Source: Candidatus Poribacteria bacterium
GTDB taxonomy: Bacteria; Poribacteria; WGA-4E; WGA-3G
Direction: 5' to 3'
DNA length: 64,000 nt
Assembly (NCBI GenBank): GCA_022827185.1
Contig: JAJDTM010000026.1
Coordinates: 27,964 to 91,963 of the forward strand
The notes under the pieces were generated by a model. That model saw nothing but the letters and a program-made list of their open reading frames with translations. It made no database searches and was not told the DNA's origin. Shown piece after piece: positions 26,089 through 45,315 of the stretch (position 1 is the first letter of the stretch; every line of letters begins with the position of its first letter). The translations under genes were made by a program, and so were the position numbers.

Positions 26089-27858
26089 ATGCAACAGATA
26101 CAAGATACGGTTTCGGTTGTTGAGGTGATGCGCCAGGCATCTCTCATCTCGGAACAGGACTATACGGATATTATTGCAGAATTAGAAGAGACCGGTGCCT
26201 CCGAAGCAGCTGTGCTTTCCAAGCATGGTGTGTCACCCAACCTCCTTGCACTTGCTACAAAGAGCGTCGAATCCGGGACCCCTCTTGTCCAATTGGAGGG
26301 GATTAATCCTGACGACGCCACACTTGAAAAGGTATCCCCAGGGTTCGCATATCGCAGCAAAATTGTTCCTATTGAATTAAACGGTGATGAACTCACGGTA
26401 GCAATGGCGGATGTCCTGGATGTCGTTCTCATAGACGAGATTGAGCTTATCACGGATTGTCGGGTAATCCCGATCCTTGCTGATGAGGCAGATATTGACG
26501 AAGCGATTATCCGTCTCTATGGACGTACTGCTGAAAGTCTTCTGAGTGCTGGTATCAAGGGCCCCGTCGGTGCGACTGAGACCCTTGAACGTGAAACCAT
26601 TGAAGACTTCGGCATTGATGAGAAAGACCTCAGCCAAGATCCGACAGTCATCCACGCTGTTGATCAGATGATTATTGATGCTGTCCGGATGGGCGCAAGT
26701 GATATCCATATTGAACCGTATCCGACACAACTCAAGATCCGATTTCGTGTTGACGGCGTGCTTGAGGATCAACCACAGCCGCCCGCCTATTTGCAATCTG
26801 CAATCACCTCCCGTATCAAAATTATGGCGGAGATGGATGTCGCCGAGCGTAGACGTCCACAGGATGGAAAGATCAGTAGGCAAATTGGCAGCGTCGGAAA
26901 CCGACAAATAGACCTTCGGGTTTCTACTGTCCCCACTGTTGCAACCCAGCATGGCGAGAGTGTTGTTCTGCGTATCCTTGACCGGCAATCTATTGAGTTT
27001 GGGCTTGCAGAACTCGGATTAACTGAAGACAACCTCGAACTCTTTCAGCGCATGATTCGCAAACCGCACGGTATTATCCTCGCGACCGGTCCCACAGGTA
27101 GTGGAAAGACGACATCACTTTATGCCTGTCTGAAAGAGATTAACTCGCCTGACGTTAAGATCATCACCCTTGAAGACCCCGTTGAGTATGAGTTAGAAGG
27201 GATCAACCAAATCCAGGTGAATTCCGACATTGAGTTCACCTTTGCGGTTGGGCTTCGTCATATTCTGCGTCAGGACCCGGATAAAGTTTTAGTCGGTGAG
27301 ATTCGCGACTACGAAACCGCAGAGATGGCGGTTCATACGTCACTGACGGGGCACCTTGTCTTTAGTACGCTCCATACCAACGATGCCCCCGGTGCTATCA
27401 CACGGCTGATTGATATGAACGTTGAACCGTATCTTGTCGCTTCCACGGTGGAAGGTATCATCGCACAAAGGCTTGCGCGTCGTGTTTGTCGGGCGTGTTG
27501 TGAGATGTATGCACCCAATATGCAAGAATTGGCTGGGTTGATAGGGAGCGGTAATGGCAATCATGTCGCGATTCCGTCCGACCTTGAAATTCCGCGGGCA
27601 GTCGGATGTAAGGAGTGTAGAGGGCGAGGTTACAAAGGTAGGATTGGTATCTTTGAAGTCTTGTTCATGACTGACGAGCTTCGGTCAATGACACTCAAAC
27701 AGTCATCTACCAGTGAGATTCGCCGCCTTGCGGTCCAAATGGGCATGAAAGGCTTACGTGAAGATGGCTGGCGCAAAGTCGCTGCTGGATTGACAACTGT
27801 TGACGAAGTCGTCCGGTTGACTCAGGAAGATGAATTTGATTTCGGAGAAGCTATCTAA
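26089..27858 (+). CDS. gspE: Type II secretion ATPase GspE/PilB family
   Basis: ASDIHIEP, RFRVDGVL, AERRRPQDG, TGPTGSGKTT, LEDPVEY, LRQDPD, GHLVFSTLHTND, two CxxC motifs. Confidence 0.95.
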   Translation: MQQIQDTVSVVEVMRQASLISEQDYTDIIAELEETGASEAAVLSKHGVSPNLLALATKSVESGTPLVQLEGINPDDATLEKVSPGFAYRSKIVPIELNGDELTVAMADVLDVVLIDEIELITDCRVIPILADEADIDEAIIRLYGRTAESLLSAGIKGPVGATETLERETIEDFGIDEKDLSQDPTVIHAVDQMIIDAVRMGASDIHIEPYPTQLKIRFRVDGVLEDQPQPPAYLQSAITSRIKIMAEMDVAERRRPQDGKISRQIGSVGNRQIDLRVSTVPTVATQHGESVVLRILDRQSIEFGLAELGLTEDNLELFQRMIRKPHGIILATGPTGSGKTTSLYACLKEINSPDVKIITLEDPVEYELEGINQIQVNSDIEFTFAVGLRHILRQDPDKVLVGEIRDYETAEMAVHTSLTGHLVFSTLHTNDAPGAITRLIDMNVEPYLVASTVEGIIAQRLARRVCRACCEMYAPNMQELAGLIGSGNGNHVAIPSDLEIPRAVGCKECRGRGYKGRIGIFEVLFMTDELRSMTLKQSSTSEIRRLAVQMGMKGLREDGWRKVAAGLTTVDEVVRLTQEDEFDFGEAI

Positions 27859-27912
27859 AGTATCTGCTGTTTTATAGGTTAATCTTGTGGGGCCGATTGT
27901 GGAGGCGAAGGA

Positions 27913-29139
27913 ATGCCGTTATTCCGATATGAAGCACTCACGCATAGTGGCGGTAGTGTAAAAAATACACTGGAAGCAGATTCTAAAGCCGAACTCGTTT
28001 CTCGGTTACGGCAGATGGGTTATTGGCCTACAGACATTATTGAGGAGACGGAGGAAGATGCCGCAAACGATGTCCGTAAATGGCTTAAAATCGGTAGTGG
28101 CGGCGTTAAAGCGGCAGACGTTGAGTTTTTCACGTATCAATTAGCGACGTTGGTGAATGCACATGTTCCGTTACCTCGTGCCTTGGAGGTTACCCTCGGG
28201 CAGATCCAGAATCCAGCACTCAACCGTATCGTCTCACAAGTCAAATATGATGTTGAACATGGCGCGACTTTTAACGATGCCCTAACACAGCATCCAAAGG
28301 CATTTTCCGACCTCTACATTAATATGGTAAAAGCCGGAGAGAGTGGTGGTGTACTCGGTTTAGTCCTCGAACGGCTTGCCGAATTTGCAGAACGCCAAAG
28401 GCTCCTAAAAAACGATGTTATCTCAGCACTCTTTTATCCCATTATTCTGTTGACGCTCAGCATTTCTGCTGTAGCCGTACTCATGATTCTTGTGATACCA
28501 AAATTCACGGCAATGTTCAACGATCTCGGGGTCGTATTGCCGCTGCCAACACGCATCCTCATCGGGGCAACCGATGCCTTCCAAACCTACTGGTGGGTGG
28601 GACTTCTCATCATCATCTTAGGTGTGGCTGGGTTAAGGCAATATCTCCGGCTCGAAACTGGCAGAGTCTGGTTTGACCGGTTGAAACTCAAAATACCACT
28701 TATCGGACCAATAATCAGCACGTTTGCCATTGTCCGTTTTACCCGAACGATGGCGACACTTTTGGAAAATGGCGTACGTATGCTGCCTGCCCTCCAGGTC
28801 GTCAAAGACACGATTGGAAACAGGGTATACAGTAATGTTGTCGCCGAAGCAGAAATAGAGGTTGAGCAAGGTTCTACACTCTCTCGGGAACTCAACAAAA
28901 GTAAGGATTTTCCTGAATTCGTCACGCACATGGTGGCTGTCGGTGAGGAGTCTGGTGAACCTGTCCACATGCTCAGTAAACTCTCTGAATACTATGATGT
29001 AGAAATAAAAAAGAGCCTCGAACGCTTAACAAGTTCAATCGGACCTCTTGTCATTCTACTGATGGGGGTGATTATCGGTTTTATCGCTGTTGCGATGATA
29101 CTTCCGATCTTTGAGGCGAACCAATTACTAAGTGGCTAA
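27913..29139 (+). CDS. gspF: Type II secretion inner-membrane platform protein
   Basis: MPLFRYEAL, YINMVKAGESGG, LPLPTRIL, HMVAVGEESG, AMILPIF. Confidence 0.95.
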   Translation: MPLFRYEALTHSGGSVKNTLEADSKAELVSRLRQMGYWPTDIIEETEEDAANDVRKWLKIGSGGVKAADVEFFTYQLATLVNAHVPLPRALEVTLGQIQNPALNRIVSQVKYDVEHGATFNDALTQHPKAFSDLYINMVKAGESGGVLGLVLERLAEFAERQRLLKNDVISALFYPIILLTLSISAVAVLMILVIPKFTAMFNDLGVVLPLPTRILIGATDAFQTYWWVGLLIIILGVAGLRQYLRLETGRVWFDRLKLKIPLIGPIISTFAIVRFTRTMATLLENGVRMLPALQVVKDTIGNRVYSNVVAEAEIEVEQGSTLSRELNKSKDFPEFVTHMVAVGEESGEPVHMLSKLSEYYDVEIKKSLERLTSSIGPLVILLMGVIIGFIAVAMILPIFEANQLLSG

Positions 29140-29194
29140 TATGCATAGGTGCAAAACGCGCCTTATGATTTTATATACATAGGAGTAAAATTAA

Positions 29195-29650
29195 ATGTTC
29201 AAGCAACTAAAATCCGATGAATCGGGATTAACGCTAATTGAGCTGACGATTGTTATTGTTATCTTAGGGATTTTAGCAGCCTTTATCGCACCACGGGTTA
29301 TGAATGCGCCGCAGAAAGCCAATGTTGCGAAGGCTCAAACAGAAATTGGTGGTCTCAAAACCGCGTTAGAACAATATTACTTGGCAACAGGTGAATATCC
29401 GACAACCGAACAGGGGTTAAGTGCCTTGTGGCGTGCACCGAGTCCAGCACCAGCAAACTGGGATGGTCCGTATATTGATAGCCCGAATTTTGTGGATCCG
29501 TGGGGTAACGCATACGTCTACCGCCAACCGAGTACGCATTACGGCTACGAATATGATCTCTCTTCAATGGGGAAAGATGGCAAGGTTGGGGGTACCGAAT
29601 TGGATGCGGACATCACCAATTGGGTTGAAGAATCAACCGCAGTATATTAA
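29195..29650 (+). CDS. gspG: Major pseudopilin
   Basis: Prepilin site G|LTLIE; YPTTEQGLSAL, NWDGPYI, DPWGNAYVY, SMGKDGKVGG..DADITNW. Confidence 0.95.
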   Translation: MFKQLKSDESGLTLIELTIVIVILGILAAFIAPRVMNAPQKANVAKAQTEIGGLKTALEQYYLATGEYPTTEQGLSALWRAPSPAPANWDGPYIDSPNFVDPWGNAYVYRQPSTHYGYEYDLSSMGKDGKVGGTELDADITNWVEESTAVY

Positions 29651-29656
29651 AAAACA

Positions 29657-30358
29657 GTGAAACAGATGACAGGTAGGCGAGGTGTTTTCATCTCGCCTAT
29701 TTCTCAACCGCAAAGTGGTTTCACGATCACTGAATTACTGCTCGTCTTGGTGCTTATCGGCATATTATCCGCAATTTCGATGCCGACGCTGAAGGGATTT
29801 GCGACAACGCGTCGATTAAAAGCATCCGCCTCTACAATCCGCAATCTCCTCACGTTCGCACGGGATATGGCAATCACTGATCAAACGACACATTTGGTTG
29901 TCTTTGATATTGACAACGGTCGGTGTTGGCTTGCTTCCAGTGAAACGTTTAACCCAAGTACGCCACTTGCATCGGCACTGACTGCCCGAAATTCTACGGT
30001 CGGGGCGGCACCCCAGAATAATACAAACGTAAACCCACAGGCGACAACCAATTCTGTTCAACAGGGGACGTTAGGGCGCGCAAGCGGTATTTTGGGTGTA
30101 CCTTATCCGATGGAGCAGGGCGTTACGTTAGCTGCGCTGGAGACCAACCACAACGGCCATACGCTTCAAAGTGATTCGGGCGCGGCGTACATCCACTTCT
30201 CACCGAATGCAACTTCCGGGGAGGCACTTGTGTACCTCCAAAACACGCGAAATCAGGTTATGTCTGTTTCTGTTGAAGCTGCGAGCGGTCGCGTTACTGT
30301 GCGACAACTCGCGTCTGAAGAGGTTGAAATATTAGGCTTTGAAATCGGACAAAATTAA
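29657..30358 (+). CDS. gspH: Minor pseudopilin GspH/FimT-like
   Basis: G|FTITELLLV; ARDMAI; IHFSPNA...SGRV; position after gspG. Confidence 0.85.
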   Translation: MKQMTGRRGVFISPISQPQSGFTITELLLVLVLIGILSAISMPTLKGFATTRRLKASASTIRNLLTFARDMAITDQTTHLVVFDIDNGRCWLASSETFNPSTPLASALTARNSTVGAAPQNNTNVNPQATTNSVQQGTLGRASGILGVPYPMEQGVTLAALETNHNGHTLQSDSGAAYIHFSPNATSGEALVYLQNTRNQVMSVSVEAASGRVTVRQLASEEVEILGFEIGQN

Positions 30359-30364
30359 TTTGCT

Positions 30365-30440
30365 TAGGACTTACGCATCGCCTCTTGCAGGCGGGGTTTC
30401 TATGGGAAACACCCAAGCAAAAACACCCCGCCTGCAGTGC
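30365..30440 (+). repeat. Dispersed MITE-like repeat (TAGGACTTACGCA family) inside the T2SS operon
   Basis: taggacttacgca(tc)gcctcttgcaggcggggtttc...accccgcctgcag matches the reverse complement of the right part of 58792-58886. Confidence 0.7.
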
Positions 30441-30451
30441 AACATAAAAGT

Positions 30452-30889
30452 ATGAAATTACGAATTAAACACTCGGTATCAGCAGAAAAAAACGGTTTTA
30501 CGCTCGTTGAGATACTCGTAACCTTAGCAATTTTGGCGGCGGTACTCCCCGCGCTTTTACACGCCTTTGCGTCTGCGGCACGGAATCAAGGGCTTTCAGA
30601 CAACACTACCACTGCGCTCTATCTCCTCAAATTTCGGATGGCAGAAATTGAGATGGGCGGCTATCCGGATGTCGGTGAGGATAGCGGTGAATTCGGTAAT
30701 AATACACGCTACCGCTGGAGTTCTATGGTTGAGGATATAGAATCTGAAGAGGTTGAAAACGTTCGGCGGGTTCAAGTGACCGTCACATGGCAACATAGAA
30801 ATCGGGAACGTTCTATGTCTATGAGCACCTTTATGGCTGACCGACAAAATTCGCAAACGCAGCAAGGGCAACAGCCTGGTGGCGGTTGA
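30452..30889 (+). CDS. gspI: Minor pseudopilin
   Basis: G|FTLVEILV; RYRW...VRRVQVTVTW. Confidence 0.85.
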   Translation: MKLRIKHSVSAEKNGFTLVEILVTLAILAAVLPALLHAFASAARNQGLSDNTTTALYLLKFRMAEIEMGGYPDVGEDSGEFGNNTRYRWSSMVEDIESEEVENVRRVQVTVTWQHRNRERSMSMSTFMADRQNSQTQQGQQPGGG

Positions 30890-30925
30890 TAGCCGTTTCC
30901 ACGGCATTCAACAAGCATTGCAGAC

Positions 30926-31843
30926 ATGAAAATTCAAAAAATATCCGCATATACAGCAAGCGAGAATGGGTTGACGCTCATTGAAATGCTTATGGCGGTT
31001 AGTATCCTCGTCATCATCGGTGGGTCAGCGTATTTTGCTTTCAAGACGGCTGTGGATGCATACCAACAGACTGAAGAAAAAATATTGTCTGCGCAGAGGA
31101 GTCGTTTCGCTATGGATCGCCTTGTAACGGACTTGGGGAACATGCAAATTTCACTTCAAGAGCCAGAACTTGCACTCTACACGCAAGATGAACCCAGCCA
31201 ATTGGGCGATAGGGATATGCTCAGTTTTGTCACGCTCGTGAAGACAGATCCCGATCCTTTTATAGAGCAGCTTTCAAGTTTCCAATCTCAAAATGCTTCA
31301 CAAGTGCCTTTGCCACTTTTAAGCGACGTTCAGCGTGTGGCGTACTTTGTCGCTGCAGAGCCTCAGCCTGGTGAATCGATTCTGAACTCCGGTAATTTCC
31401 GAGGTGCTTCTACAGAAGATATAGGTGCCGAAGAGAATAGTAGATACGCTCTCTTTCGTCTTACAACCACAACCCTCGATCCGGAAGCTGTGATCGGTCC
31501 GTTCTTACAAGGTGGAGCAGTCCCGGAGACAGACGAAAACGGGGCACCCATTTACGTTAATGTCGCGACACTCATTACGGGACTTGCTAATTTTGATCTG
31601 CAGTATTTTGACGGTGAGGCAGAAGTGTGGAACTCCTCTTGGGATGACCCTGAAAGTGTTCCAAGTGCTGTCCAAATCCTAATAACTGTCCAAGGGGGCG
31701 CGCAGAGAGCCGTAAATACAAATACCACACAGTTTGCGTCCCAAAATCAACCTATGGTGCCGTCAAATAGTATGACACAATCAACGATGGTGTATCTCCC
31801 AGGAAGTGCAACCGCTGGTGGCGGCGCGGAGGGTGGACAATAA
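30926..31843 (+). CDS. gspJ: Minor pseudopilin
   Basis: G|LTLIEMLM; C-terminal FDLQYFDG...WNSSWD...PSAVQI. Confidence 0.85.
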   Translation: MKIQKISAYTASENGLTLIEMLMAVSILVIIGGSAYFAFKTAVDAYQQTEEKILSAQRSRFAMDRLVTDLGNMQISLQEPELALYTQDEPSQLGDRDMLSFVTLVKTDPDPFIEQLSSFQSQNASQVPLPLLSDVQRVAYFVAAEPQPGESILNSGNFRGASTEDIGAEENSRYALFRLTTTTLDPEAVIGPFLQGGAVPETDENGAPIYVNVATLITGLANFDLQYFDGEAEVWNSSWDDPESVPSAVQILITVQGGAQRAVNTNTTQFASQNQPMVPSNSMTQSTMVYLPGSATAGGGAEGGQ

Positions 31844-33424
31844 ATGATGCTATTTACAAAGCGGTTTACCTATCCATTCTACAAGGAACAGCGTGGGTTA
31901 TCCCTCGTTTCAACGCTCTGGATACTCACGATTCTCTCTATTTTGGCGGCCCAACTGCTCTATTCGATCCATATAGAACAGCGTACGCAACGGAATTTCT
32001 TGGATAGAGGGAAGTATCACTACGCTGCAAAGGCAGGATTTGAGTGGGCACTCGCTGTCATGCGAACGGACCAGACACCCTTCGATTCGCTCGGTGAGAG
32101 TTGGGCAGCACCTATCACGGGGCAAGTTGAAGATGGGGTTCAAATCGGAAAATTCCTAAACTACAGTGTAACGGTCACCGATGAAGCATCGAGGGTTAAT
32201 ATCAATGTCGCTGATGTTGGACTCTTCACTAATTTGCTCGCACAGGTAGGGGCTTCACCGGATGATGCCCAGACAGAGGAACTCGCTAATGCAATCGTAG
32301 AAGGTCAACCGTACCGGACCGTTCGAGATCTTGCGAGAGTGGCGGGGATGACATCTGAACTCCTTTACGGGACCCAACAAATGGCGGCGTTTACACAGGG
32401 CATGGCAAATACACAAGGCGCGTCTACGAGCACAACCCCTGAGCTTTCAACAGCGAGTTTGGGAAGTCCACAGGGAACATCAATAGAGGCGCGACCCGGG
32501 CTTGTGGATTTAGCAACCATATATTCACTTGATGCGAGCACAGATCCAGACGGACAAGCACTCGTAAATGTCAATACAGCGGATGCAGATCAGTTGACGC
32601 AAATTGAGACGCAGTCCGGTCAAGGTGGGGGGCAATCTGTCTTTTCACAGGCTGAGGCGGAATCACTGATTCAGCAGCGTGAGTTTGACAGATTTTCTGA
32701 CCTCATAGATGTAAAAGCCGTCTCTGATGAACTTTTTAACAACATCCGAGACCGAATTACGACTGAAGATTCCGGCGGAAATCAAGACGATGAAGACGGG
32801 GAAGACGATGAAGAATGGACCGGACCTCAACAGGGACAGGGCGAGGATGGACAGATCAATATCAATACTGCTGATGTTGAAACCTTGGAATCCCTGGACG
32901 GTATTGACCAAGGCATTGCCGAACGTATTGTCGACCATCGCGACTCACAAGGATTTTTTCAGAACATAGACGCTATTAAAGATGTCACACTGTTAACGCA
33001 GCAAGAATTCATCGGTATCGTTGACAAAATAACCCTTAAAGATGGAGATACCCGCAGCGGACTGATTAACATAAACACTGCGTCTGCTGAAATCTTAGCA
33101 CTGCTACCGGGAATGGATGGAGAAAGGGCGCAAGCGATCGTCACGCGCCGCGAACAAGATCCGCCAGATGATGCGCCAGTACTGAGTTTTACCGAAGAGG
33201 AGATAACGGGTCATCCGTTCACCACCATCTCACAACTCTCAGAACTTGAGGAGATTGACTTTAATACGTTCCGTGAAGTTGTTGATTGGGTAACTTACCG
33301 TTCACACGGCTATCGTATCGAGGCAACCGGCGTTGATGCCACAGGTAAGGTTGTTTCAACCTGTATCGGTGTCATTGATCGGACGGGTGACCAAGTCATC
33401 GTTCAATATTGGAGACAGGATTAG
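31844..33424 (+). CDS. gspK: Minor pseudopilin GspK with four ComEA/HhH-like modules
   Basis: QRG|LSLVSTLW (no Glu5, typical of GspK), DSLGESWA, DEASRVNIN; repeated (V/I)N(I/V)N(T/V)A modules; C-terminal YRIEATG...VQYWRQ. Confidence 0.85.
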   Translation: MMLFTKRFTYPFYKEQRGLSLVSTLWILTILSILAAQLLYSIHIEQRTQRNFLDRGKYHYAAKAGFEWALAVMRTDQTPFDSLGESWAAPITGQVEDGVQIGKFLNYSVTVTDEASRVNINVADVGLFTNLLAQVGASPDDAQTEELANAIVEGQPYRTVRDLARVAGMTSELLYGTQQMAAFTQGMANTQGASTSTTPELSTASLGSPQGTSIEARPGLVDLATIYSLDASTDPDGQALVNVNTADADQLTQIETQSGQGGGQSVFSQAEAESLIQQREFDRFSDLIDVKAVSDELFNNIRDRITTEDSGGNQDDEDGEDDEEWTGPQQGQGEDGQININTADVETLESLDGIDQGIAERIVDHRDSQGFFQNIDAIKDVTLLTQQEFIGIVDKITLKDGDTRSGLININTASAEILALLPGMDGERAQAIVTRREQDPPDDAPVLSFTEEEITGHPFTTISQLSELEEIDFNTFREVVDWVTYRSHGYRIEATGVDATGKVVSTCIGVIDRTGDQVIVQYWRQD

Positions 33425-33454
33425 AGGAGTGGCTTTCAGTTAGCTAGCGAAAAA

Positions 33455-35239
33455 ATGGCAAAAAAACGAGTTGTAGCGATAGATATCGGCACGCATACAG
33501 CGAAAATGGTTCAGCTTGAACAGTCATCCGGGACTTTGCGTCTCACGAATGCGGGGGTCGTTACATACACTGACAAGGATGATAAGCAACAGGTCGCTGA
33601 ATCGATAAGACACCTTTGGGCATCCTTAGGAAGTCCGGCACAGAAAGGAAATCTGCTTTCGCTATTCAATAGGAGTGACCTTGAGGTTGTTCTCGCGCTG
33701 CCGAGATCTTTGGTAAACACAAAACGTTTAGCCAACTTGCCTACCGCAACCGATGATCAACTCGCGAATATCGTCACAATTGCGGCGGAGTCGGAACTTC
33801 CCTTTCGGATTGAAGAAGCAATCTTTACTTACCACGATGTGAGACAAACAGCAGATGCCACTTCGGTGGAATTGATATCCACCCGACGCGCGTCCGTCAC
33901 AAGTTATCTGGATTTCCTTGAACGGATCGGTGTGTCAGCTTCTGCTGTCACGCCTTCAATGATCGCTATTGCAGAGACAGTAGCAAATAGCGGATGTACC
34001 AAACCTACATTTGTTGTTGACATCGGTGCTTCGCAAACCGACTTTTGTTTTGTTGAGGGCGGTGTGCTACGGTTTTCTCGGAGTTTCCGTTTAGGGGGTG
34101 ACAATCTATCTGCGCATATCAGCCAAGCCTTGAATGTTGATAGTGAGACAGCAGCGGAAGAAAAGCGACATATTCCGGCGGATGAAGCACCTACATCTAC
34201 GTGGACAGCCGAGTTGATTGGTGAACTACAGCGTTCTATTGCTGCTGCAACTGCCCATCGAGCATCGGACGATTTTGACCCTACGGAAGAAACTGATGGG
34301 ACGGAAAGTTTCACACCGACCGAAATAGAAACGGAACTCTGGTTATGTGGTGGTGGTGCACGTGTCCCTGACCTCGCAGCGGCTTTAGAACAAGAACTTG
34401 ACATCCCGACATCCTTCTGGAATCCACTTCGTGCCATTGAGCAACAGTCAGATATTAAAATTGAGCCGCAACGGGCAGAAGTTAGTGCTGTACTTGCGGA
34501 ATGGGGAGATACCCTTGCGGTGCCGCTCGGTGTTGGATTTAGTGCTTTGGACTCGACACCCCAACCTTCTTTGCTACCGAAAGAGGCTGCCGAGACGCTG
34601 ACACAAACAACACGGCAACGCCAAATTTTTGCTACCGCGGGGTTGGGTGTTTTGATTGTTGGGGGTGTCCTCTTTGGGGGGTATACGCTTCAACGTTCGC
34701 AAAAGCACAGAACGGAAATGGTTGATGCGCGACTCGCGAGTTACGCGCAACCGGTGGCAGCCGCGCAAGCGCAGCTTGGACGTGAACTGGCACTCACAGA
34801 GATGTTAGCGCATAACATATCGCCGCTTGATATTTTGCATGCCCTCAGCGAGATGTTTCGCGATAGAACACAGGTCGCTTGGACCAATTTCAGTATTATC
34901 AATCTTCACGAGCCTGAGACGGCGAGAATTACTTTCAATTTGGAGGGCGCGTCCCATAACGCTATAAATACGCTTTTGCGCGCACTTGAACGGTCCGGGG
35001 TCTTTACAAATGTTCGACCGGGTGAGGTTACAACAATTTCTCAAAATAGAAAACAGATTTTCCAAGTACAGGTGCGGTGTAACTTAACGGCATCTGCTGT
35101 TCGGGCATTCGCTAAGAAACGCTATCCAATGCCTCAACCACAGATTGATAAATCGGCAACGGCGGCAGAATTACAACTTGATCCGCCTGCGTCTAAAATC
35201 CTTGAACTTGAAAATGAGGAAACCGAGAAAGACGAATAA
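33455..35239 (+). CDS. GspL-position protein: PilM-like actin-fold domain fused to TM and a PilN-like domain
   Basis: VAIDIGTHTAK, VVDIGASQT, LWLCGGGARVPDL; one TM; C-terminal ferredoxin-like segment LEGAS...LERSGVFTNV. Confidence 0.8.
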   Translation: MAKKRVVAIDIGTHTAKMVQLEQSSGTLRLTNAGVVTYTDKDDKQQVAESIRHLWASLGSPAQKGNLLSLFNRSDLEVVLALPRSLVNTKRLANLPTATDDQLANIVTIAAESELPFRIEEAIFTYHDVRQTADATSVELISTRRASVTSYLDFLERIGVSASAVTPSMIAIAETVANSGCTKPTFVVDIGASQTDFCFVEGGVLRFSRSFRLGGDNLSAHISQALNVDSETAAEEKRHIPADEAPTSTWTAELIGELQRSIAAATAHRASDDFDPTEETDGTESFTPTEIETELWLCGGGARVPDLAAALEQELDIPTSFWNPLRAIEQQSDIKIEPQRAEVSAVLAEWGDTLAVPLGVGFSALDSTPQPSLLPKEAAETLTQTTRQRQIFATAGLGVLIVGGVLFGGYTLQRSQKHRTEMVDARLASYAQPVAAAQAQLGRELALTEMLAHNISPLDILHALSEMFRDRTQVAWTNFSIINLHEPETARITFNLEGASHNAINTLLRALERSGVFTNVRPGEVTTISQNRKQIFQVQVRCNLTASAVRAFAKKRYPMPQPQIDKSATAAELQLDPPASKILELENEETEKDE

Positions 35240-35241
35240 TA

Positions 35242-35488
35242 TAATAGTTGTTAGTTAATAGTTGTTAGTTATAAGTTAAGAGGTTTCCGATGATTTAAGC
35301 CTCTTTTGATAACGGTCGGTACTTCAATTGGGTAACAACCTTTACAAAGCACCGTCAAACATCAGAAACAAAACGGTAATAGTTGTTAGTTCTTAGTACG
35401 CTTCGCTTTAGGTTATAAGTTAAGAGGTGTTGGGATTATCAAAAACCTTTTGTAACTTATAACTTATAACTTATAACTTATAACTATT
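35242..35488. repeat. Heptamer-armed palindromic intergenic repeat(s)
   Basis: Left arms aatagttgttagtt...aagagg (about 35243 and 35378); right arm (TAACTTA)x4+TAACTAT at 35453-35487. Confidence 0.8.
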
Positions 35489-35513
35489 TAGGACTTTTAT
35501 AGAGGATGAATTC

Positions 35514-36797
35514 ATGGAACTGGATCTTGAATTAACGCCCAGGAGCCGAGTTTTACTTGGCATTTTAGGTGCTGTGCTGCTGGTTTTGATCGCAGTACAG
35601 GGTGTCCCTGCCATTTATCGCTTATTTGTAAATCAAGGTGCCAAAGCTAAACAGGAACAGTTAATGCAAACTGAGAATTTGGTACATGCTGCAGAGGTGC
35701 TTAAACCGATTGAGTCCGAGATTTACAAAGCAACGGGATTGGCACAAGAAGAACAGCCAGTGCGAACGGGTGCTCAGGGTGCTGGAACACTTTTTGACAC
35801 TGAACCTCCAGAGACGGTCATTCGGGCACGTGTTGATGCGCTCATAAGGCGTGCGGGTATCCAACAGAATTACCAACTTTTGACGAAGCCCGGTAGCGGA
35901 AAACAGACCCAAAAATTGACGATACAAAATCGGGAGAGACTGGTTCTCTATCTCTATTTCAAGCATATAGAAACAGAGGAAACGGAGCTTGCGGAGATAG
36001 CAGAACAGGCGGCTGAAGCTGAAACGTTTGACATGTTGATGGATGCTTGGCTGTCAGAAGATACAGAATCCGATACAGCTGAAAAAATGGAAGATACAGA
36101 CGAGGCATCATCTGGTGCGGAACAGTCCATAGAAAAATCAGCATCTACGGACAAAGCGCAGTCAGCGGATTCAACAGCGACTGTGGAGGCGTGGAGATTC
36201 GCCTCACTTCCAGAAACGATACCTGTCACACACCGGGTTAAACTTGCTGCATATATCAAGGATATGGTGATACAACAGCTCCGCGGGGCAACAAATTTCA
36301 GACAAGGTTTCTTTGAATCTCAAGTTCACAGCGTTAAAACCGCTGCGACCCCTGGTATCTTCGGCATTGGTGCTAAACCTGCTACTGTCGAAATCCAGTT
36401 ACGAAGAAATAGTGGGCTTTTGAGTATTCTCGCGCAATCAGAGGATGAATATGCTGAAGAGGTCCCAAACACTGGTGAACTTCAAGCGGCATTGATCAAG
36501 TACATTGAGGAGATTCAGGCGCAGCGTGCAACGCTTTTGGAGGAGCTCGCGTTGGCACCATCGACTTATGAAACGCAACTTTACACCGTTGAAATGAAAT
36601 TCAAAACAGATCTTGAAAAACTTGTTAACTTAAACCATCTCATTGAAACAAACGCTAAATGGCTAACTGTCCGCGATTTGCGGATCTCGGCTGATAAGCA
36701 GGCGTCGCGTTCTGAAGGACAACGCGGTCGGAATCGCGAAGGAGCGGATGGGGCGAACTTGAACGTTGAAATACTTCTCCTCGCTCGAATCTTTTAA
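35514..36797 (+). CDS. GspM/PilO-like protein with a large acidic insertion
   Basis: LTPRSRVLL plus TM; C-terminal YTVEMKFKTDLEKLVNL..LIET..WLTVRDLRIS...LNVEILL; lies between gspL and gspD. Confidence 0.6.
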   Translation: MELDLELTPRSRVLLGILGAVLLVLIAVQGVPAIYRLFVNQGAKAKQEQLMQTENLVHAAEVLKPIESEIYKATGLAQEEQPVRTGAQGAGTLFDTEPPETVIRARVDALIRRAGIQQNYQLLTKPGSGKQTQKLTIQNRERLVLYLYFKHIETEETELAEIAEQAAEAETFDMLMDAWLSEDTESDTAEKMEDTDEASSGAEQSIEKSASTDKAQSADSTATVEAWRFASLPETIPVTHRVKLAAYIKDMVIQQLRGATNFRQGFFESQVHSVKTAATPGIFGIGAKPATVEIQLRRNSGLLSILAQSEDEYAEEVPNTGELQAALIKYIEEIQAQRATLLEELALAPSTYETQLYTVEMKFKTDLEKLVNLNHLIETNAKWLTVRDLRISADKQASRSEGQRGRNREGADGANLNVEILLLARIF

Positions 36798-36939
36798 CTT
36801 TATTGAGATCCGTGAATCGGTTTCAGGGCTTAAAAAAACTGTCTAAACCTCGCTGAGGCCCCTCTGTGGAATTCGTACTTCAGAGAACTCTCGTGAGGTT
36901 TGCAGGAAAATGTGATTAAATCAAAAAGGATCGGATGTT

Positions 36940-39882
36940 ATGCAAGGACGCAGACTCTTATTTTTTATTTTCTTCCTCTGTTTCGGATTGCTTGTTATGG
37001 GGCTTGTCGAGTTACAAGCACAGCAACAACCAACTATGCGTGTCGCACAGACCGACGAAGAAGGTCGCGCAATCCGTTTCGACTTTAACTTTACCAGCGA
37101 AGATCTGAAAGCGGTACTTGAATGGCTTTCGCGAGAAACAGATCTAACAATTATCGCGAGTGAAGAAGATACTCGAGATAAAAGGTTCGCGCTCATTAAT
37201 CTGACGAATGTGACGATTGAAGAGGTTATCGAACAAATCAAAACTGTCCTCACACAATATGACCTCACGCTCATCCAAACCGATAGCACGCTCTTGGTTA
37301 CAACCTTCTCGCGTGCTATGCGTACAAAAGGTATTGTCAAAAGCATTACACCGGATCCGGATCTTGTTGATATGACCGATGAGATTCAAACATATATTAT
37401 TCGATTAACAAACGTTGTTGCCTCAGAACAGGTGGATCGTCTGAAACCGCTACTCAATTCACAGGCACATATTTTTGTGGATACGGCAACAAATTCACTG
37501 GTCATCACCGATGTCTCCTCCAATATACGCCGAATCGTCACAATTCTACAAGTCGCTGACGAAGGTGAAAGATTCCCATTAAAGATTCTCATTGTTCCAC
37601 TCGCTTATGCGGATGCCAACAGCTTGGCACAAGCACTCACAAATATTTTTCAGCAAGGAGAAGGGCGTGACGAAAGGCGATCTGATGGCGGAGGTGGCCG
37701 TATTAGTGCGGAAGAGGCGAAAACCGCAGCAGAGCAGATGAAGGTGGACGGCACTGGCTATGAAGTCCTTGACGGGACCATCAAAATTATCGCTGAAACC
37801 AATTCAAATTCACTTGTCCTCAAAGCCTCTGAGGCAAATTTGGTTTTCCTACAAGAAATTATCAAAGACCTGGATGTCTCATCCACCGCACAAACCCAGA
37901 TACGTACCTTCAAACTTAATTATGCCTCTGCCGAAGATGTCGCACAAACCCTACAGCAAGTACTCACCGGTGAAAGTGGAAATGACCGTCGCAGAATGGA
38001 CGCTTGGGATCGAGCAAAATTAAGAAACTGGCAACGCGAACAGGGGCTCAACCAGGAGGGGATTGTCGGAACTATTAACGTCTCGCACAATGCTCGACTC
38101 AATGTCGTTGTCGTCTCCTCAGATCCACGTAACTTTTCCATTATTGAGAAAGTTATCCAAGAGCTTGATCAAGAAATAACGCAAGAAGAAATTAAACTCT
38201 ATTTCCTCAAACATGCGGATGCTCAAACCCTTGTGCCGAGTCTACAGGACCTTTTTGAAGGCGGAAGTACCGGTCGCGACAGAAACCGTCCATGGTGGGA
38301 TCGCAGATATAGGGAACCCTCTGAAGGTGGCGGTGGATTTGGTGTACAAGGTGAGGTTCACCTTGTCGCTGATGGACGCCTCAACGCCATCCTGATTTCA
38401 ACAAGTTCACAGAATTTTGAAACGATTGATAGCCTCATCGAAAAGCTGGATGTCAACATGCCGGATCAAGAGTGGGGCACCCGCATGTATCACCTCAAGT
38501 ACGCCGATGCTACAAATGTCGCCGCTGTTATTAATAATACGTATCAAGGCAGTTCTGGGAGTAGCAGAGATTTTTTCTATTATCTACCGCGTAGTAGTCT
38601 ACGTAATCAGACCCAAGGTTCATTGGCAGGCAACGTTACTGCTGAAGCGTATCCTACGTTGAACGCTGTGATCATCTCAACGGCTACCCAACGGAACTTT
38701 GAACTCATCACACAGTTTATCAACTCTATGGATGTCCCTACACCCGAAGGGCAAAAAGAGATAACAAAAGCAATTCGGCTTGAGTATGCAGAGGCGACGC
38801 AACTTGAGCAAGTCCTTCAACAAGTTTGGGAAGGTGAAGATCAGGGGGGCTTTAGTAGTTTTAGATTCTTCGTTATGAATGCCGGCAGACAGCAGCAGCA
38901 AGATATTAACTCCTTGCGTGGTAAAGTCACTGTCTTCGCTGATGCGGATACCAACTCTCTGATTATCACGACACGCCAGCGATACCTTGGTGATGTGATG
39001 GCACTTATTAAAGAGTTAGATTTTGTGCGAGGGCAGGTCTGGATAGATATTCAGATTCTTGAAGTCACGCTTGATGAGACCACCAAACTCGGCATTGAAC
39101 TTACCGCACAAGAAAATAAACTCTTCGGCGTATCCCCAGTTCCCGGCAACCCGCTTATCGGTAGTCTTGAGGGAAAACTCGGGCTCGAGCAGGAAATCTC
39201 TGGATTTAATCTCGGTTTAGCGACCAAGGAATATATGGCACTTCTTCACGCTCTGATGCGTGAAAACAAGGTCCAAACCCTTTCAACACCGTCGCTTTTA
39301 ACAAGGGATTCCAGAACTGCCACATGGAGCAGTGGTCGTCGCATTCCATATCTCCAAAGCGTTGATACCACGAGTATTTTGGGCGAAGCCGTCTCACAAC
39401 CGCTCTTTAACTACGATTTTATTGATCCACCGGTGGGCATCAATATTGATCTCACCCCTTACATCGCTAAATCGAAAGCAGGTGAGGACGGTAAGCGCAC
39501 CATCGGCTTGGATATTAATAACATCAGTGCCAGCAATTTCATTGAGTTTACTGACTTCAATGCACCTATTACCGATGACAACTCGATCAGCGTCTATATT
39601 GATGTGGAGGACGGACAACGGATTGTTGTCGGTGGTATCATCCGTAAGAAACAGAAACAGGTAGAGAATAAACTCCCAATCTTAGGCGACATTCCGTTGC
39701 TTGGTAGGCTCTTCAAAAGCACCGAAACCGCTGTTGAAGATACTGAGATTGTGATCATTATTACGCCGCACATCGTCGATATTAAAAATCCTGACGACCT
39801 TGAGAAACTTAAGGAAAAGGCTGATAATTGGCAGAGCAACGGGAGCACCGAAATGGAGAAGGAAACGGAAACAGGAAAATAA
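36940..39882 (+). CDS. gspD: Secretin with an expanded N-domain array
   Basis: QVWIDIQILEV, LSTPSLLT, VGINIDLTP, DGQRIVVGGI, KLPILGDIPLLGRLFKS, IIITPHIV; six Secretin_N-like repeats. Confidence 0.93.
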   Translation: MQGRRLLFFIFFLCFGLLVMGLVELQAQQQPTMRVAQTDEEGRAIRFDFNFTSEDLKAVLEWLSRETDLTIIASEEDTRDKRFALINLTNVTIEEVIEQIKTVLTQYDLTLIQTDSTLLVTTFSRAMRTKGIVKSITPDPDLVDMTDEIQTYIIRLTNVVASEQVDRLKPLLNSQAHIFVDTATNSLVITDVSSNIRRIVTILQVADEGERFPLKILIVPLAYADANSLAQALTNIFQQGEGRDERRSDGGGGRISAEEAKTAAEQMKVDGTGYEVLDGTIKIIAETNSNSLVLKASEANLVFLQEIIKDLDVSSTAQTQIRTFKLNYASAEDVAQTLQQVLTGESGNDRRRMDAWDRAKLRNWQREQGLNQEGIVGTINVSHNARLNVVVVSSDPRNFSIIEKVIQELDQEITQEEIKLYFLKHADAQTLVPSLQDLFEGGSTGRDRNRPWWDRRYREPSEGGGGFGVQGEVHLVADGRLNAILISTSSQNFETIDSLIEKLDVNMPDQEWGTRMYHLKYADATNVAAVINNTYQGSSGSSRDFFYYLPRSSLRNQTQGSLAGNVTAEAYPTLNAVIISTATQRNFELITQFINSMDVPTPEGQKEITKAIRLEYAEATQLEQVLQQVWEGEDQGGFSSFRFFVMNAGRQQQQDINSLRGKVTVFADADTNSLIITTRQRYLGDVMALIKELDFVRGQVWIDIQILEVTLDETTKLGIELTAQENKLFGVSPVPGNPLIGSLEGKLGLEQEISGFNLGLATKEYMALLHALMRENKVQTLSTPSLLTRDSRTATWSSGRRIPYLQSVDTTSILGEAVSQPLFNYDFIDPPVGINIDLTPYIAKSKAGEDGKRTIGLDINNISASNFIEFTDFNAPITDDNSISVYIDVEDGQRIVVGGIIRKKQKQVENKLPILGDIPLLGRLFKSTETAVEDTEIVIIITPHIVDIKNPDDLEKLKEKADNWQSNGSTEMEKETETGK

Positions 39883-39889
39883 CGCATAC

Positions 39890-40089: not shown

Positions 40090-40124
40090 GCAAACAGACT
40101 CTCATTTAAACAGAGGTGGCTGCT

Positions 40125-40853
40125 ATGCGAACAATCGTTATTCTCGGTGTTCTGATTATATCAGCACTGCTGTTATGTCAGATGAGTTATGCCGAACTTC
40201 TTGTAGCGGATGACTTTAAAGGCAAACTCAAAGATAAGTACTGGAAAGGGCAGAAAGAATCTTGGGATATCAAAAACGAACATTTGGAAATCCACCGCGT
40301 CGCTGGTGATGGGAATGGAGCGGTTGATTTTGGGTATGGCGTGGTAGAATTTGAAGATTTTGGGCTTCGTCTGGATTTCTACCTTTTTGCGGATCCGCAG
40401 CCGAGTAAGATGGAACTCCTGTTCCGGGCAAACGAAGATCTACATTTCTATCAGTTGATTATTACACCCGCTGATGGTTTTGGTCGCCCTAATTCTGCAC
40501 GTTGGTACAAACGACAAGGTGAAGATCGGGGGACGTGGAATGAGTACATTGACTTCAGAGACGAATTTCCGATCCAGATTAATACAAAAGAGTGGTACAC
40601 CCTTGCTTTGCTCGGTGATGGTAGTACTTTTAATCTCTACATCAAGAAGCAAGGCGAACTCTCCTTTGAAAAGGTTTCAGATTTGAGCGATGTCAAGAAT
40701 CTGCATCCAAAGGGGGTCCTCGGTTTTCATACCAATCAGCTCCAACACTACTATATTGATAACCTTTTCCTTTACGACAATCCGCGTGAGGTGAGCCTTG
40801 CTGTTGAACCTCAAGGTAAACTTGCTGTAACGTGGGCGGCACTTAAACAGTAG
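40125..40853 (+). CDS. Secreted jelly-roll (DUF1080/LamG-like) protein with C-terminal TW motif
   Basis: Signal peptide (SYA); DDF, ELLFR, EWYTL, KGVLGF, YYIDNL; ends AVEPQGKLAVTWAALKQ. Confidence 0.7.
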   Translation: MRTIVILGVLIISALLLCQMSYAELLVADDFKGKLKDKYWKGQKESWDIKNEHLEIHRVAGDGNGAVDFGYGVVEFEDFGLRLDFYLFADPQPSKMELLFRANEDLHFYQLIITPADGFGRPNSARWYKRQGEDRGTWNEYIDFRDEFPIQINTKEWYTLALLGDGSTFNLYIKKQGELSFEKVSDLSDVKNLHPKGVLGFHTNQLQHYYIDNLFLYDNPREVSLAVEPQGKLAVTWAALKQ

Positions 40854-41066: not shown

Positions 41067-41936
41067 ATGAGAAAAACTTATTTTGTTATAGCCATCTTGG
41101 CACTTTTCAGTTTTGTGACGATGGTTTCAGCCAACGATTTGGCTTTTTATTCAGGTCCCACCAACCCTGGCTGGATTTCCGATAAGGCTGTCCAAGAGAA
41201 CGTCAAGGTCATTAAAGATGATGCGGGTATCAAAAGTCTGTTTGAGAACATTGAAGATTTTGGCGATGGCGACGAAGTCGGTGACAATTCGCCACTCGCT
41301 AAGTGGACCAAGGAACATACCGGTAACGGGCAACAAGATGTTATTATTTTGGCTTGTGGAACGTGTCCAAGCGGACTTTACGAGTTCCCGAATAAAGACC
41401 CGGACGGTTCCAATGTTGAGAACTTCGTTGAAGCCGGTAATATCGTCATTAACGTTGCGGACTGGATTTTCTATATGAGTTACGAGGGCGGTGTCCGAAG
41501 CCCGAATAACGGTCCTACGGGGGCTGCCAATGTCTTTGATATTGACGGACTCAGTTTCGGGGCTCGGGTAGGTGCTATGAAACCGACGGACATCGGCAAA
41601 AGAATCATTCCGTCAATGAAGGCTTTCAACTCTGATCGTCCGTGGCACGTAGAGCAATTTGATGGTTCTGATTGGGACCTCGTCATTTTCGCAGAGGCTG
41701 ACAAAAATAACGCCGATCCAGCCGTCGCTATTAGCAAGTCACCGGGTGACGATGGAACGGGTATGATCGCCGCTATGTGGCAGTCCGCCAGACCCGCATG
41801 GCCCGAAAAGCCTGACATTCGTGGTATCGGTGTTGTTGAATTCATCAACAACTGGCTCGCAGACGAAGCCGAATTCAATGTTGAAGCCAAGAACAAGTTA
41901 GCGACAACTTGGGGGACAATCAAGCAGACTCGCTAA
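41067..41936 (+). CDS. Secreted hypothetical protein with C-terminal TW motif
   Basis: AAGGAG RBS; signal peptide (VSA); ends NVEAKNKLATTWGTIKQTR; own promoter TTGACT-N18-TATATT at 40949-40978. Confidence 0.75.
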   Translation: MRKTYFVIAILALFSFVTMVSANDLAFYSGPTNPGWISDKAVQENVKVIKDDAGIKSLFENIEDFGDGDEVGDNSPLAKWTKEHTGNGQQDVIILACGTCPSGLYEFPNKDPDGSNVENFVEAGNIVINVADWIFYMSYEGGVRSPNNGPTGAANVFDIDGLSFGARVGAMKPTDIGKRIIPSMKAFNSDRPWHVEQFDGSDWDLVIFAEADKNNADPAVAISKSPGDDGTGMIAAMWQSARPAWPEKPDIRGIGVVEFINNWLADEAEFNVEAKNKLATTWGTIKQTR

Positions 41937-41989: not shown

Positions 41990-42040
41990 AGGGAATTTTC
42001 TGTTGCTGTTTGAGGCAGCGCAGGAAGTTCCCTTTTTTAT
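41990..42040. terminator. Intrinsic terminator between convergent genes
   Basis: agggaattttctgttgc...gcagcgcaggaagttccct followed by a T-run. Confidence 0.65.
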
Positions 42041-42044
42041 TTCG

Positions 42045-44478: not shown

Positions 44479-44526
44479 AGTACTTTGGAAATCTATGAGC
44501 TGCCCAAAAGCAGTCTGTTGGTTACT

Positions 44527-45315
44527 TTACTTATTCGTTTTAAGGTAACCCCATAGGGTTGGCAACGTGAATTCGGAATATTCAACTGCTTGTGGCGCGT
44601 CCAAATTTGGGCTCAGTACATCAGCCTCTCTGGCAATATTACTGATTCGGACTTCGTCGATTAATCCTTTCCACTTAAACTGGCGAGTGTTCTTGCTGCC
44701 GATGATGACATCAAATCCTGCTGCACCTGCGAGTTTACCGCCATGGTTCGTTGAACCGACCTCTTTTCCGTCAATATAGAGTTTGACCTGATTGGAATCG
44801 TAGGTGCCAGCGACGTGCTGCCACTGCTCTAATTCTAACGCGTCTGTCGCGCCAGCGAACGCAGTTCCTTTTTCCGTGTTAAGGTGAAATTTAGCGATGC
44901 CGTTCTGAACACCTAAATGGTAGGCACCCGGTGGTCCATCCCAGTTCGTGAAGATGAGTCGCCATCCAGTCAAATCTTCGGGATAGACCCAGGCTTCGAT
45001 TGTAATTTCGAGTTTCGGTATAAGAATATCTGCTTCGCCGAGCGAGATCACCGTATTTCCGTCAAAGACAAACGATTTACCGGGTTTATTCTCTTTATTC
45101 CATGTTTGATTCGCGTCCCACGCCGCTTTTCCTTCCACCTCACCTTTGACTTTGTTATCGGAGGTATCTACGATATTACCCCCGTCAAAATGCCACAAAC
45201 CGAGGGTTGATTCATCGGGTAGATACTCAAATCCACCAGCAGCGAAACTGATAATTGCTGGAAGGATGAGAAACACGTATAATAAAAACGTATATTGCCA
45301 TTTTATCAGATCCAT
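44527..45315 (-). CDS. Secreted LamG-domain protein with a variant C-terminal motif
   Basis: TLGLWHFD, ITIEAWVYP, WQHVAGTYD, LYIDG, GLIDEVRISNIAR; ends AVEYSEFTLPTLWGYLKTNK. Confidence 0.88.
   Translation of the reverse strand: MDLIKWQYTFLLYVFLILPAIISFAAGGFEYLPDESTLGLWHFDGGNIVDTSDNKVKGEVEGKAAWDANQTWNKENKPGKSFVFDGNTVISLGEADILIPKLEITIEAWVYPEDLTGWRLIFTNWDGPPGAYHLGVQNGIAKFHLNTEKGTAFAGATDALELEQWQHVAGTYDSNQVKLYIDGKEVGSTNHGGKLAGAAGFDVIIGSKNTRQFKWKGLIDEVRISNIAREADVLSPNLDAPQAVEYSEFTLPTLWGYLKTNK

Follow-up and report, generated by a model that had tools for sequence, protein, structure and literature searches.

Portable signals at the C-terminus of exported proteins are known from several bacterial sorting and attachment systems. 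Here we compare them with a short C-terminal tail shared by three exported proteins that are encoded beside a type II secretion system (T2SS) operon in Candidatus Poribacteria. The window, that is, the whole stretch of DNA analyzed, comprises 64,000 nt of contig JAJDTM010000026.1 (C5:27964-91963) in assembly GCA_022827185.1, which has 6.1 Mb in 65 contigs and is 92.7% complete. The three tails of the window are ordinary copies of a C-terminal short linear motif found throughout Poribacteria, and the only partner to which this motif is physically linked in a conserved manner appears, from the protein sequences, to be a C-terminal domain (CTD) of the kind known from T9SS (type IX secretion systems).

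The CTD of T9SS type A cargo (TIGR04183 / PF18962 Por_Secre_tail, PF13860 FlgD_ig-like), which PorU processes and PorV shuttles, is, like the tail, a C-terminal signal on many unrelated Sec-exported families. According to the sections of PMC4560394 that treat this signal, the CTD of the Bacteroidota system is essential for crossing the outer membrane and is removed in a sortase-like reaction by PorU, which joins the new C-terminus to a surface glycolipid. The cleavage sites of this transpeptidase are given there as X/(G,S,A)(V,L,I), and those of Porphyromonas gingivalis PorU end in Thr, Asp, Glu or Asn. In Prevotella intermedia, as described in part of PMC11969387, short CTDs have a cleavage motif (consensus PT/GI) 6-11 residues ahead of motif B, and in long CTDs this distance is 19-30 residues. 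The tail of Poribacteria can be found 6 residues before the core of a CTD, which is the region of the Bacteroidota cleavage-site motif in that part of PMC11969387, and SprA-, PorU- and PorV/PorQ-like genes are present in the source genome. The free tail differs from the CTD in that it has 17-20 residues, is disordered in models and contains neither a folded CTD nor motifs B, D and E. The parts of the cited texts that deal with Bacteroidota cleavage describe no conserved 17-residue motif upstream of the cut. Furthermore, the host lies outside Bacteroidota, and PorL/M gave no match in searches run without a positive control.

The LPXTG/sortase, PEP-CTERM/exosortase and GlyGly-CTERM/rhombosortase systems also use a short C-terminal motif with a disposable end on many exported proteins, and a cysteine transpeptidase (PorU-like) would again be the candidate reader. 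Unlike these signals, the tail has no transmembrane helix or defined basic cluster and is typically followed by 1-6 polar or basic residues. The dockerin of cohesin-dockerin pairs would resemble the tail as a portable C-terminal attachment module, and it follows, and apparently supersedes, the tail in two proteins described below (P0068 and P0071); however, a dockerin folds into a module of about 70 residues that carries duplicated calcium-binding repeats, whereas the tail is a 17-residue linear peptide. The proteins of the window also resemble T2SS substrates in being Sec-exported, folded, small and soluble and in being encoded beside a T2SS operon, but this adjacency is not conserved and the tag is linked to the CTD of another system.

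The common motif was read from the translations of the open reading frames (ORFs) in the window, where it ends three dissimilar proteins with Sec signals, designated P1, P2 and P3.

40116..40853, + strand: P1, exported protein of 245 aa without a Pfam or NCBIfam family
40800-40850 (40800-40853 including the stop codon), + strand: P1 tag, AVEPQGKLAVTWAALKQ
41067..41936, + strand: P2, exported alpha/beta protein of 289 aa without a Pfam match
41877-41933 (41877-41936 including the stop codon), + strand: P2 tag, NVEAKNKLATTWGTIKQTR
44527..45315, - strand: P3, exported LamG protein of 262 aa (Laminin_G_3, 1.8e-29)
44530-44589 (44527-44589 including the stop codon), - strand: P3 tag, AVEYSEFTLPTLWGYLKTNK, a diverged form

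Hydrophobic, signal-like segments are present at the N-termini of all three translations. The probable start codons of P1 and P2 are ATG 40125 and ATG 41067 and not the GTG/TTG codons chosen by the ORF finder, homologues starting at the matching Met. When the bodies without tails were grouped by single linkage, P1 was a singleton, P2 belonged to a 4-member family and P3 to a 93-member LamG family. The P3 tail is a weak, diverged member of the tail family, scoring 11.3 bits with the tail model described below versus 29.5 bits for P1 and 27.6 bits for P2. None of the three proteins matched the T9SS CTD models TIGR04183, PF18962 and PF13860 or the dockerin model PF00404. Thus, a preliminary description of this DNA was right in reporting one terminal motif on three Sec-signal proteins with unlike bodies. 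Its placement of them directly downstream of gspD is true of P1 and P2, which are on the same strand as gspD, but not of P3, whose gene is on the other strand past two unrelated genes, for a GT2 glycosyltransferase and squalene-hopene cyclase (SHC).

A hidden Markov model (HMM) was built from 147 tails selected by regular expression and run on the stop-to-stop ORFs of the genome; the counts given here come from such ORFs and from simple patterns and do not involve curated gene calls. At a threshold of 10 bits, 193 ORFs were found, in 190 of which the tail lies at most 16 residues from the C-terminus, the other 3 being internal. The 190 tail genes form 116 clusters, and about 3-4% of the genes end in one 17-residue peptide in this uncultivated sponge-symbiont phylum. 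The genome consensus is L-A-V-E-P-x-G-K-L-[AT]-T-T-W-[GA]-x-[LI]-K, and the core of the tag across the phylum is V-[ED]-P-x-G-[KR]-x4-W-[GA]-x-[LIV]-[KR]. Past the Lys at position +4 from the Trp (Lys+4), the tails extend by 1-12 residues (1-6 in 183 of 190, zero in 0 of 190), which show no conservation and are chiefly R, K, Q, S or T. No transmembrane segment or basic cluster follows the motif as in LPXTG-, PEP-CTERM-, GlyGly-CTERM- or MYXO-CTERM-type signals, which bears out the claim that it lacks a membrane anchor and the PEP-CTERM, GlyGly-CTERM and LPXTG layouts. The tail itself matches no Pfam or NCBIfam model, and among the sorting-signal models none gave a hit at E<=1.

The carriers of the tail were examined for export signals and domains. 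A crude rule, Met plus a hydrophobic stretch, was used instead of a dedicated signal-peptide predictor; it was passed by 174 of the 190 tail ORFs, versus 31% of 2229 background ORFs of similar size, and the 16 ORFs that failed include three short fragments. By this test and by the N-termini in the window, the tail proteins have the Sec signal that characterizes T9SS type A cargo. Their median length is about 260 residues and most have a single domain. The bodies fall into 36 single-linkage families with 93, 25, 18, 5, 5, 4 and fewer members, 24 of them singletons. A Pfam scan covered 21 proteins, namely 19 family representatives, one more tail-bearing ORF and a tail-CTD fusion. Among the 20 scanned tail-bearing proteins, 9 contained LamG, PD40 propeller, 3keto-disac_hyd (3-keto-disaccharide-hydrolase/DUF1080), NPCBM, CBM9-like, DUF4960 or ConA-like domains, 11 matched nothing in Pfam, and no catalytic domain was recognized in any of the 20. 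The carriers are mostly small, non-catalytic modules of sugar-binding type. In another genome of the phylum (G104), contigs C36 and C37 contain ORFs of 5766 and 7444 aa with more than 10 tandem LamG domains each, in contrast to the single-domain LamG proteins that bear tails.

Conservation and structure of the tail were followed in P2, for which 335 homologues were found. V272, K277, T280 and W282 are invariant in 46 P2 sequences, orthologues that are 60-92% identical, and the tail is conserved as strongly as the protein core. An AlphaFold2 (AF2) model from the 46 sequences had a mean pLDDT of 77.4, with about 85-95 in the body, which ends in a helix at residues 251-267, and less than 50 at residues 272-289. 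The tail of P2 is thus modeled as a disordered end, and its folding back as an integral strand of the body, an alternative raised in the preliminary description, is not predicted. The body shows weak GATase1/ThuA-like similarity in fold (best TM-score 0.35-0.43, none at E<=0.001). Two P2 orthologues, P0068 and P0071, are 70-71% identical to P2 over the whole body; beyond the body come an internal tail that has decayed, EDQLATTWNEIKEG, then Dockerin_1, a linker helix and a CTD of the linker type described below. PF00404 was found only in these extended orthologues. Their internal tail has lost Lys-5 and Gly+1, and it would stay internal even after a cut at the CTD boundary. The motif is intact at the CTD junction described next and decayed in P0068 and P0071, and together these sequences point to retention of the tail only where it is C-terminal or able to become so. 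The P2-type body, with either the short tail alone or dockerin plus CTD, represents a natural swap of C-terminal display modules.

The physical link between the tail and the CTD was found in the same genome. There are 66 ORFs that end in a 90-residue domain starting with N[YF]PNPFNPETW, which is of the T9SS type (Por_Secre_tail 28.0 bits with a cut-off of 27; FlgD_ig 45.9 bits). Most of these CTDs are preceded by a helical linker ending in L-x-P-[KE]-[EK]-T-[AV]-L-L-x, in which Pro is found in 59 and Thr in 58 of 63 sequences. The window contains one protein of this linker type:

16417..18549 (CTD at about 18265-18531), + strand: WD40-repeat protein with a linker-type 90-aa T9SS-type CTD, 719-aa ORF, LTPKETALLPNYPNPFNPETWIPY

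It scored 213 bits with WD40, and the CTD part of a T9SS sortase model matches C5:46228-46494. One FG-GAP/ASPIC protein, on contig C35, has no helical linker and carries a full tail directly before the CTD. With the last 130 residues of this fusion as the query, a protein collection yielded 7894 matches; in 98 of the best 120 of these 7894 the motif lies at most 22 aa before N[YF]PNPFN, a figure biased by the tail-containing query. The distance from Lys+4 to the Asn of NYPNPF is exactly 6 residues in 97 of the 98 junctions, which read K-[TA]-A-E-V-F-Q. About the top 77 of the 120 are orthologues of the query. The other motif-bearing matches are, by precomputed Pfam assignments, mostly WD40-type propellers; a few are alpha/beta-hydrolases, and one has ECF-sigma domains. 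Proteins with PF14312 (FG-GAP_2) have only a tail-like segment without Trp at the junction position. Linker-type CTDs thus carry P-x-x-T-[AV]-L-L, and tail-type CTDs the tail, where Bacteroidota have the cleavage-site motif. A strict junction pattern at the DNA level was detected in 31 of 61 genomes, at 0-3 copies per genome; by family, 28 of 36 genomes of f1, 1 of 6 of f2 and 1 of 2 of f8 were positive, and none in the others. An AF2 model of the fusion from 49 sequences (mean pLDDT 79.7) gave less than 50 at residues 512-542, which cover the tail and the junction, and the CTD strands start at residue 544. In this model the tail resembles a conserved flexible linker. Strand complementation, in which free tails would donate an additional CTD strand in trans to linker-type CTDs, was considered and found to have no support, the segment being modeled as a low-confidence linker.

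To our knowledge, this is the first record of such a junction: the tag motif, still conserved, stands ahead of the CTD at a constant distance of 6 residues in 97 database proteins from several families. The tag is unnamed in curated libraries, and a literature search that did not cover supplements returned no published description of it or of a T9SS in Poribacteria; the relevant portion of PMC7313196 mentions Poribacteria and the T9SS in unrelated passages.

We next consider the distribution of the tag. The DNA pattern T-T-W-[GA]-x-[LIMF]-K, of which 99 of 101 matches in the source genome were true tails, was found in 150 of 151 sampled genomes of the phylum (reversed-pattern controls 0-3), in agreement with the statement in the preliminary description that such tails are frequent in Poribacteria. 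A secretin was found in 150 of 151 genomes, the single miss being a 73%-complete genome, and the T9SS-type CTD pattern in 151 of 151; these genomes are related and not independent samples. Since tag, secretin and CTD are all near-universal, their phyletic profile is uninformative on the reader, and their co-occurrence cannot single one out within the phylum. The genomes G008 and G013 of genus g15, with 0-1 matches to the strict pattern, were considered as a tail-less control and rejected: 12 of 12 LamG loci inspected there hold ORFs with a diverged tag, e.g. SVDPRGKMAAAWASLKRAN (17 ORFs in total). The tag is thus kept in every sampled genus, in diverged form in g15. At the g15 loci (L035-L063), both Thr before the Trp are replaced with A, V, S or Q and Arg often stands in for Lys+4, whereas the frame V-[DE]-P-x-G-[KR] ... 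W-[GA]-x-[LV]-[KR] is retained; this drift could be used to seek co-varying residues in a reader.

Beyond the phylum, a species-level genome collection was scanned with G-K-L-x-T-T-W-[GA]-x-[LIMF]-K, a pattern tuned to this form of the tag, and 80 of at least 126 matching stretches were examined. Among the 80 matches listed, 73 came from Poribacteria, 5 from 'uncultured bacterium', 1 from a metagenome-assembled genome (MAG) of Pseudomonadota and 1 from a MAG of Planctomycetota. The Planctomycetota genome has 2 matches to the tag pattern, which is background. The Pseudomonadota MAG (1.9 Mb) has 6, all on small contigs, which may be due to mis-binning, although this is a guess. Three unlabeled genomes have 41-85 matches each. 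No tail-rich genome of another phylum appeared among the matches listed, nor did the FCB candidate phyla, to some of which the preliminary description had ascribed similar tails.

Homologues of the T9SS translocon, shuttle and sortase are encoded in the source genome.

L004:6457-13089: SprA/Sov homologue of 2210 aa (TIGR04189 154 bits, E 2.7e-45, cut-off 200)
L216:1614-7871: PorU-like protein, sortase-like gene #1
L216:7897-9000: PorV/PorQ-family barrel directly after sortase-like gene #1
L217:2457-8915, - strand: PorU-like protein
L218:2415-7514, - strand: PorU-like protein
L005:9685-10734: PorV/PorQ-family barrel
L006:10620-11762: PorV/PorQ-family barrel

The three PorU-like proteins (1699-2152 aa) have Propeptide_C25, Peptidase_C25 at 285-293 bits (cut-off 23) and a CTD of their own; with NF033707 they scored 406, 346 and 400 bits versus a cut-off of 420. 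The three barrels scored 203, 182 and 110 bits with NF033709 (subfamily cut-off 90), and the best model for the one next to sortase-like gene #1 is the NCBIfam model 'PorV2', below its cut-off. Sortase-like, PorV2-like and SprA-like genes are each present in 37 of 37 sampled genomes of the phylum, and in most of these the sortase and PorV2-like genes form a pair 3-4 kb apart. His271 and Cys305 of the C25 fragment, which we take to be the catalytic pair, are invariant in 30 sequences; the PorU-like proteins would presumably be cysteine transpeptidases of clan CD. A phylum outside Bacteroidota thus appears to encode a T9SS-type set for the outer membrane and attachment. A complex prediction with the C25 domain of sortase-like #1, the PorV2-like barrel and P2 residues 245-289, run without controls, gave a score of 0.00 (mark 0.32), which speaks neither for binding nor against it.

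From the position of the tail where Bacteroidota CTDs carry the cleavage-site motif, we infer that the free tail may be the body-CTD junction motif standing alone, read by the T9SS-type sorting machinery for surface retention. We put this forward tentatively, at somewhat less than an even chance. The tail would be a flexible peptide that is read in trans and works only as the eventual or actual C-terminal end. At the CTD junction it would occupy the position of the Bacteroidota PorU cleavage-site motif, so that after removal of the CTD the tail-type cargo would end much like the free-tail proteins. PorU-like C25 sortases, PorV/PorQ-family barrels or both would recognize the tail, and the binding modules would thereby be retained or anchored at the cell surface. 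The T2SS would not be the specific reader and at most would serve as the outer-membrane route of tail-only proteins.

Several points weigh against this explanation. The free tail lacks every defining feature of a T9SS signal, and if the CTD is essential for translocation, as stated in the above sections of PMC4560394, tail-only proteins should not pass the T9SS translocon. P. gingivalis PorU cleavage is described as sequence-independent in the pertinent part of PMC4804311, and therefore a 17-residue recognition motif would be without precedent. Since T9SS cargo also crosses the periplasm, the junction does not fix the compartment in which the tail would be read. The junction count comes from a query that itself contained the tail, and the fused form is rare, free tails being dominant throughout the phylum. 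Because strict junctions are rare and nearly confined to f1 and free tails are phylum-wide, the junction may have arisen secondarily by fusion rather than being the source from which the tag came. As for the machinery, SprA and PorU score below the NCBIfam equivalog cut-offs, and GldL (TIGR03513), GldM (PF12080, TIGR03517) and PorP/SprF gave no match in searches run without a positive control. Finally, neither neighborhood nor co-occurrence singled out a reader. 

A more specific variant of the junction-motif explanation, which we regard as unlikely, has the tail acting by itself as a sorting tag for C25 transpeptidases of the PorU type, which would cut after the invariant Lys/Arg and couple about 190 modules per cell to glycolipid at the surface, export of the CTD-less substrates being via the T2SS. 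One of the three sortase/PorV-family sets would recognize the motif, the leaving group would be the variable end of 1-6 residues or the entire CTD of fused cargo, and two secretion systems would feed one attachment system. That 0 of 190 tails end at Lys+4 would fit a scissile bond there and proves nothing. Lys+4 as the P1 residue of a clan-CD peptidase, a suggestion that drew in part on gingipain specificity, was set aside as speculation. The PorU sites given in the above sections of PMC4560394 end in Thr, Asp, Glu or Asn.

The preliminary description had instead proposed that the tail is a secretion or docking signal read by the adjacent T2SS, through GspD N-domains, GspK modules or a GspM-like protein. 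The genes in question are as follows.

26089..39882, + strand: complete T2SS operon with GspE, F, G, three minor pseudopilins of the N-methyl type, K, PilM/GspL-like, GspM-like and D
35514-36797, between the gspL-like gene and gspD: GspM-like protein of 427 aa (NF040576 16.7 bits, a weak match confined to an end of the protein)
42045-44478, - strand: GT2 glycosyltransferase and squalene-hopene cyclase genes

The operon was recognized by T2SSE (432 bits), T2SSF, T2SSG, GspK NF037980 (104 bits) and, for GspD, TIGR02517 (387 bits, above cut-off), and it holds the sole secretin match of the genome. On the strand of gspD, two tail genes begin 234 bp and about 1.2 kb past it, and the third lies within 5.5 kb; from a random point, the chance of tail genes starting within 5.5 kb on one side is 0.032 for at least two and 0.007 for at least three, which is suggestive for one pre-chosen locus and weak when many machines could have been noticed. 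With the only secretin, the T2SS would be the obvious known route for CTD-less tail proteins if these leave the periplasm at all. However, in 16 other genomes of 14 genera (15 with usable flanks, one locus being too short), the downstream neighbor of gspD was never a tail gene by the tail HMM or by a relaxed C-terminal pattern that matches 24 of 7939 non-tail ORFs of the source genome. In G113, of the same genus, gspD is directly followed by GT2, the cyclase and a P3 orthologue, which is 87% identical, has the same diverged tail and occupies the same place beyond GT2 and SHC. G108 encodes orthologues of both P1 and P2 (74-75% identical) at a distance of about 10 kb from gspD, the P1 orthologue (74%) being tailed. 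The tail genes 6-9 kb from gspD in G001 and G139 are unrelated ones.

With 190 tail genes in 116 clusters, tail neighbors are expected beside some machine gene, as the preliminary description had itself cautioned for an abundant motif. Indeed, a tail-bearing LamG gene lies 323 bp upstream of the SprA-like gene, and this adjacency was found again only in the congener G016, there on the opposite strand, whereas none of 28 other genomes has it. As neither adjacency is conserved, adjacency is uninformative for both machines, and that to the T2SS is an accident of this lineage, involving a class of genes that is very abundant. Phyletic profiling, which had been suggested as a check, does not discriminate in favor of the T2SS when tag and secretin are each present in 150 of 151 genomes. 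No conserved genetic or phyletic coupling of tag and T2SS was thus found; the sole conserved physical link of the motif is to the T9SS-type CTD, and we know of no linear signal in T2SS substrates. The portable C-terminal label contained in the proposal agrees with all measurements, namely the 190 of 193 C-terminal positions, the 36 families, the conservation among orthologues, the predicted disorder and the decay when internal. Reading by this T2SS, given the abundance of the tag and the points above, is very unlikely, and the operon is taken here as context of the tag genes.

Outside both secretion systems, the tail could be a non-covalent docking peptide, like a minimal dockerin, for an abundant envelope receptor or scaffold such as a repeated domain on large surface proteins, a cohesin-like module, an S-layer or an outer-membrane protein. 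This would suit carriers that are nearly all small non-catalytic binding modules needing attachment, residues past Lys+4 that are unconserved, and a tail that is strongly conserved yet disordered in the models, as for a peptide that would acquire its fold upon binding; the dockerin plus CTD cassette of P0068 and P0071 would functionally replace a tail that decays. Nevertheless, docking by itself does not account for the constant distance of 6 residues between tail and CTD at 97 of 98 junctions, and the neighbor families of tail genes, of which eight representatives were read, yielded no candidate acceptor, so that we consider docking somewhat unlikely. A role in the periplasm, as a chaperone or holdase handle, a protease-control element or a cell-wall tether, is distinctly unlikely. 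Tail-only proteins and CTD cargo both pass through the periplasm after Sec export, the former have no recognized outer-membrane export signal, and the end of the tail is rich in Lys and Arg. Carbohydrate-binding modules, however, are more often surface or extracellular, dockerin plus CTD direct the P2 body to the surface in some species, and the variable length of 1-12 residues past Lys+4 argues against readers such as PDZ domains, which measure from the free carboxylate. That the tail is a functionless relic of CTD loss by truncation is highly improbable: free tails do end inside the stretch between Lys+4 and the CTD core of the fused form, as truncation would give, but the tail is nearly invariant across orthologues of 60-92% identity, is retained on 190 paralogues of 36 families and in every sampled genus including the diverged g15, decays once internal, and is far more frequent free than fused.

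If the tail is a tag for a T9SS-type sortase, type IX-style sorting would extend beyond Bacteroidota and a short linear motif could replace a folded sorting domain. This would also explain how cells are coated with a large, fast-evolving set of glycan-binding modules and would provide a compact natural tag for surface display. The stand-alone PorU tag of the more specific variant would be the first short linear C-terminal signal of type IX-style sorting, outside Bacteroidota.

The genes around the tail genes were also compared. Among the enriched neighbor families no secretion machine emerged; mildly enriched were FGE-sulfatase-like, PhyH-like and Gfo/Idh/MocA-like families and a transposase family, as judged by eye from eight representatives. 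These look like metabolic expansions plus a transposase family. Two IS605-type TnpB genes (OrfB_IS605 with a Cas12f1-like TNB domain; L004:2606-4982 and 14992-16284) flank the SprA-like region, and the TnpB family recurs close to tail genes.

The T2SS operon of the window is atypical. GspK (31844-33424) contains two ComEA-like helix-hairpin-helix inserts (HHH_3 110 bits), and GspD (36940-39882) is a 980-aa protein with six Secretin_N stretches. The 427-aa GspM-like protein has one N-terminal hydrophobic segment and an acidic low-complexity middle, and it could be a stand-in for GspC/M/N. In genus g2 (G023 and others), gspD is duplicated in tandem, and the two genes are followed by GT2 and the cyclase. 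In G113 and in g2, gspD directly precedes the GT2/SHC pair, so that in the lineage of the window the genes for P1 and P2 seem to have been inserted between gspD and the pair.

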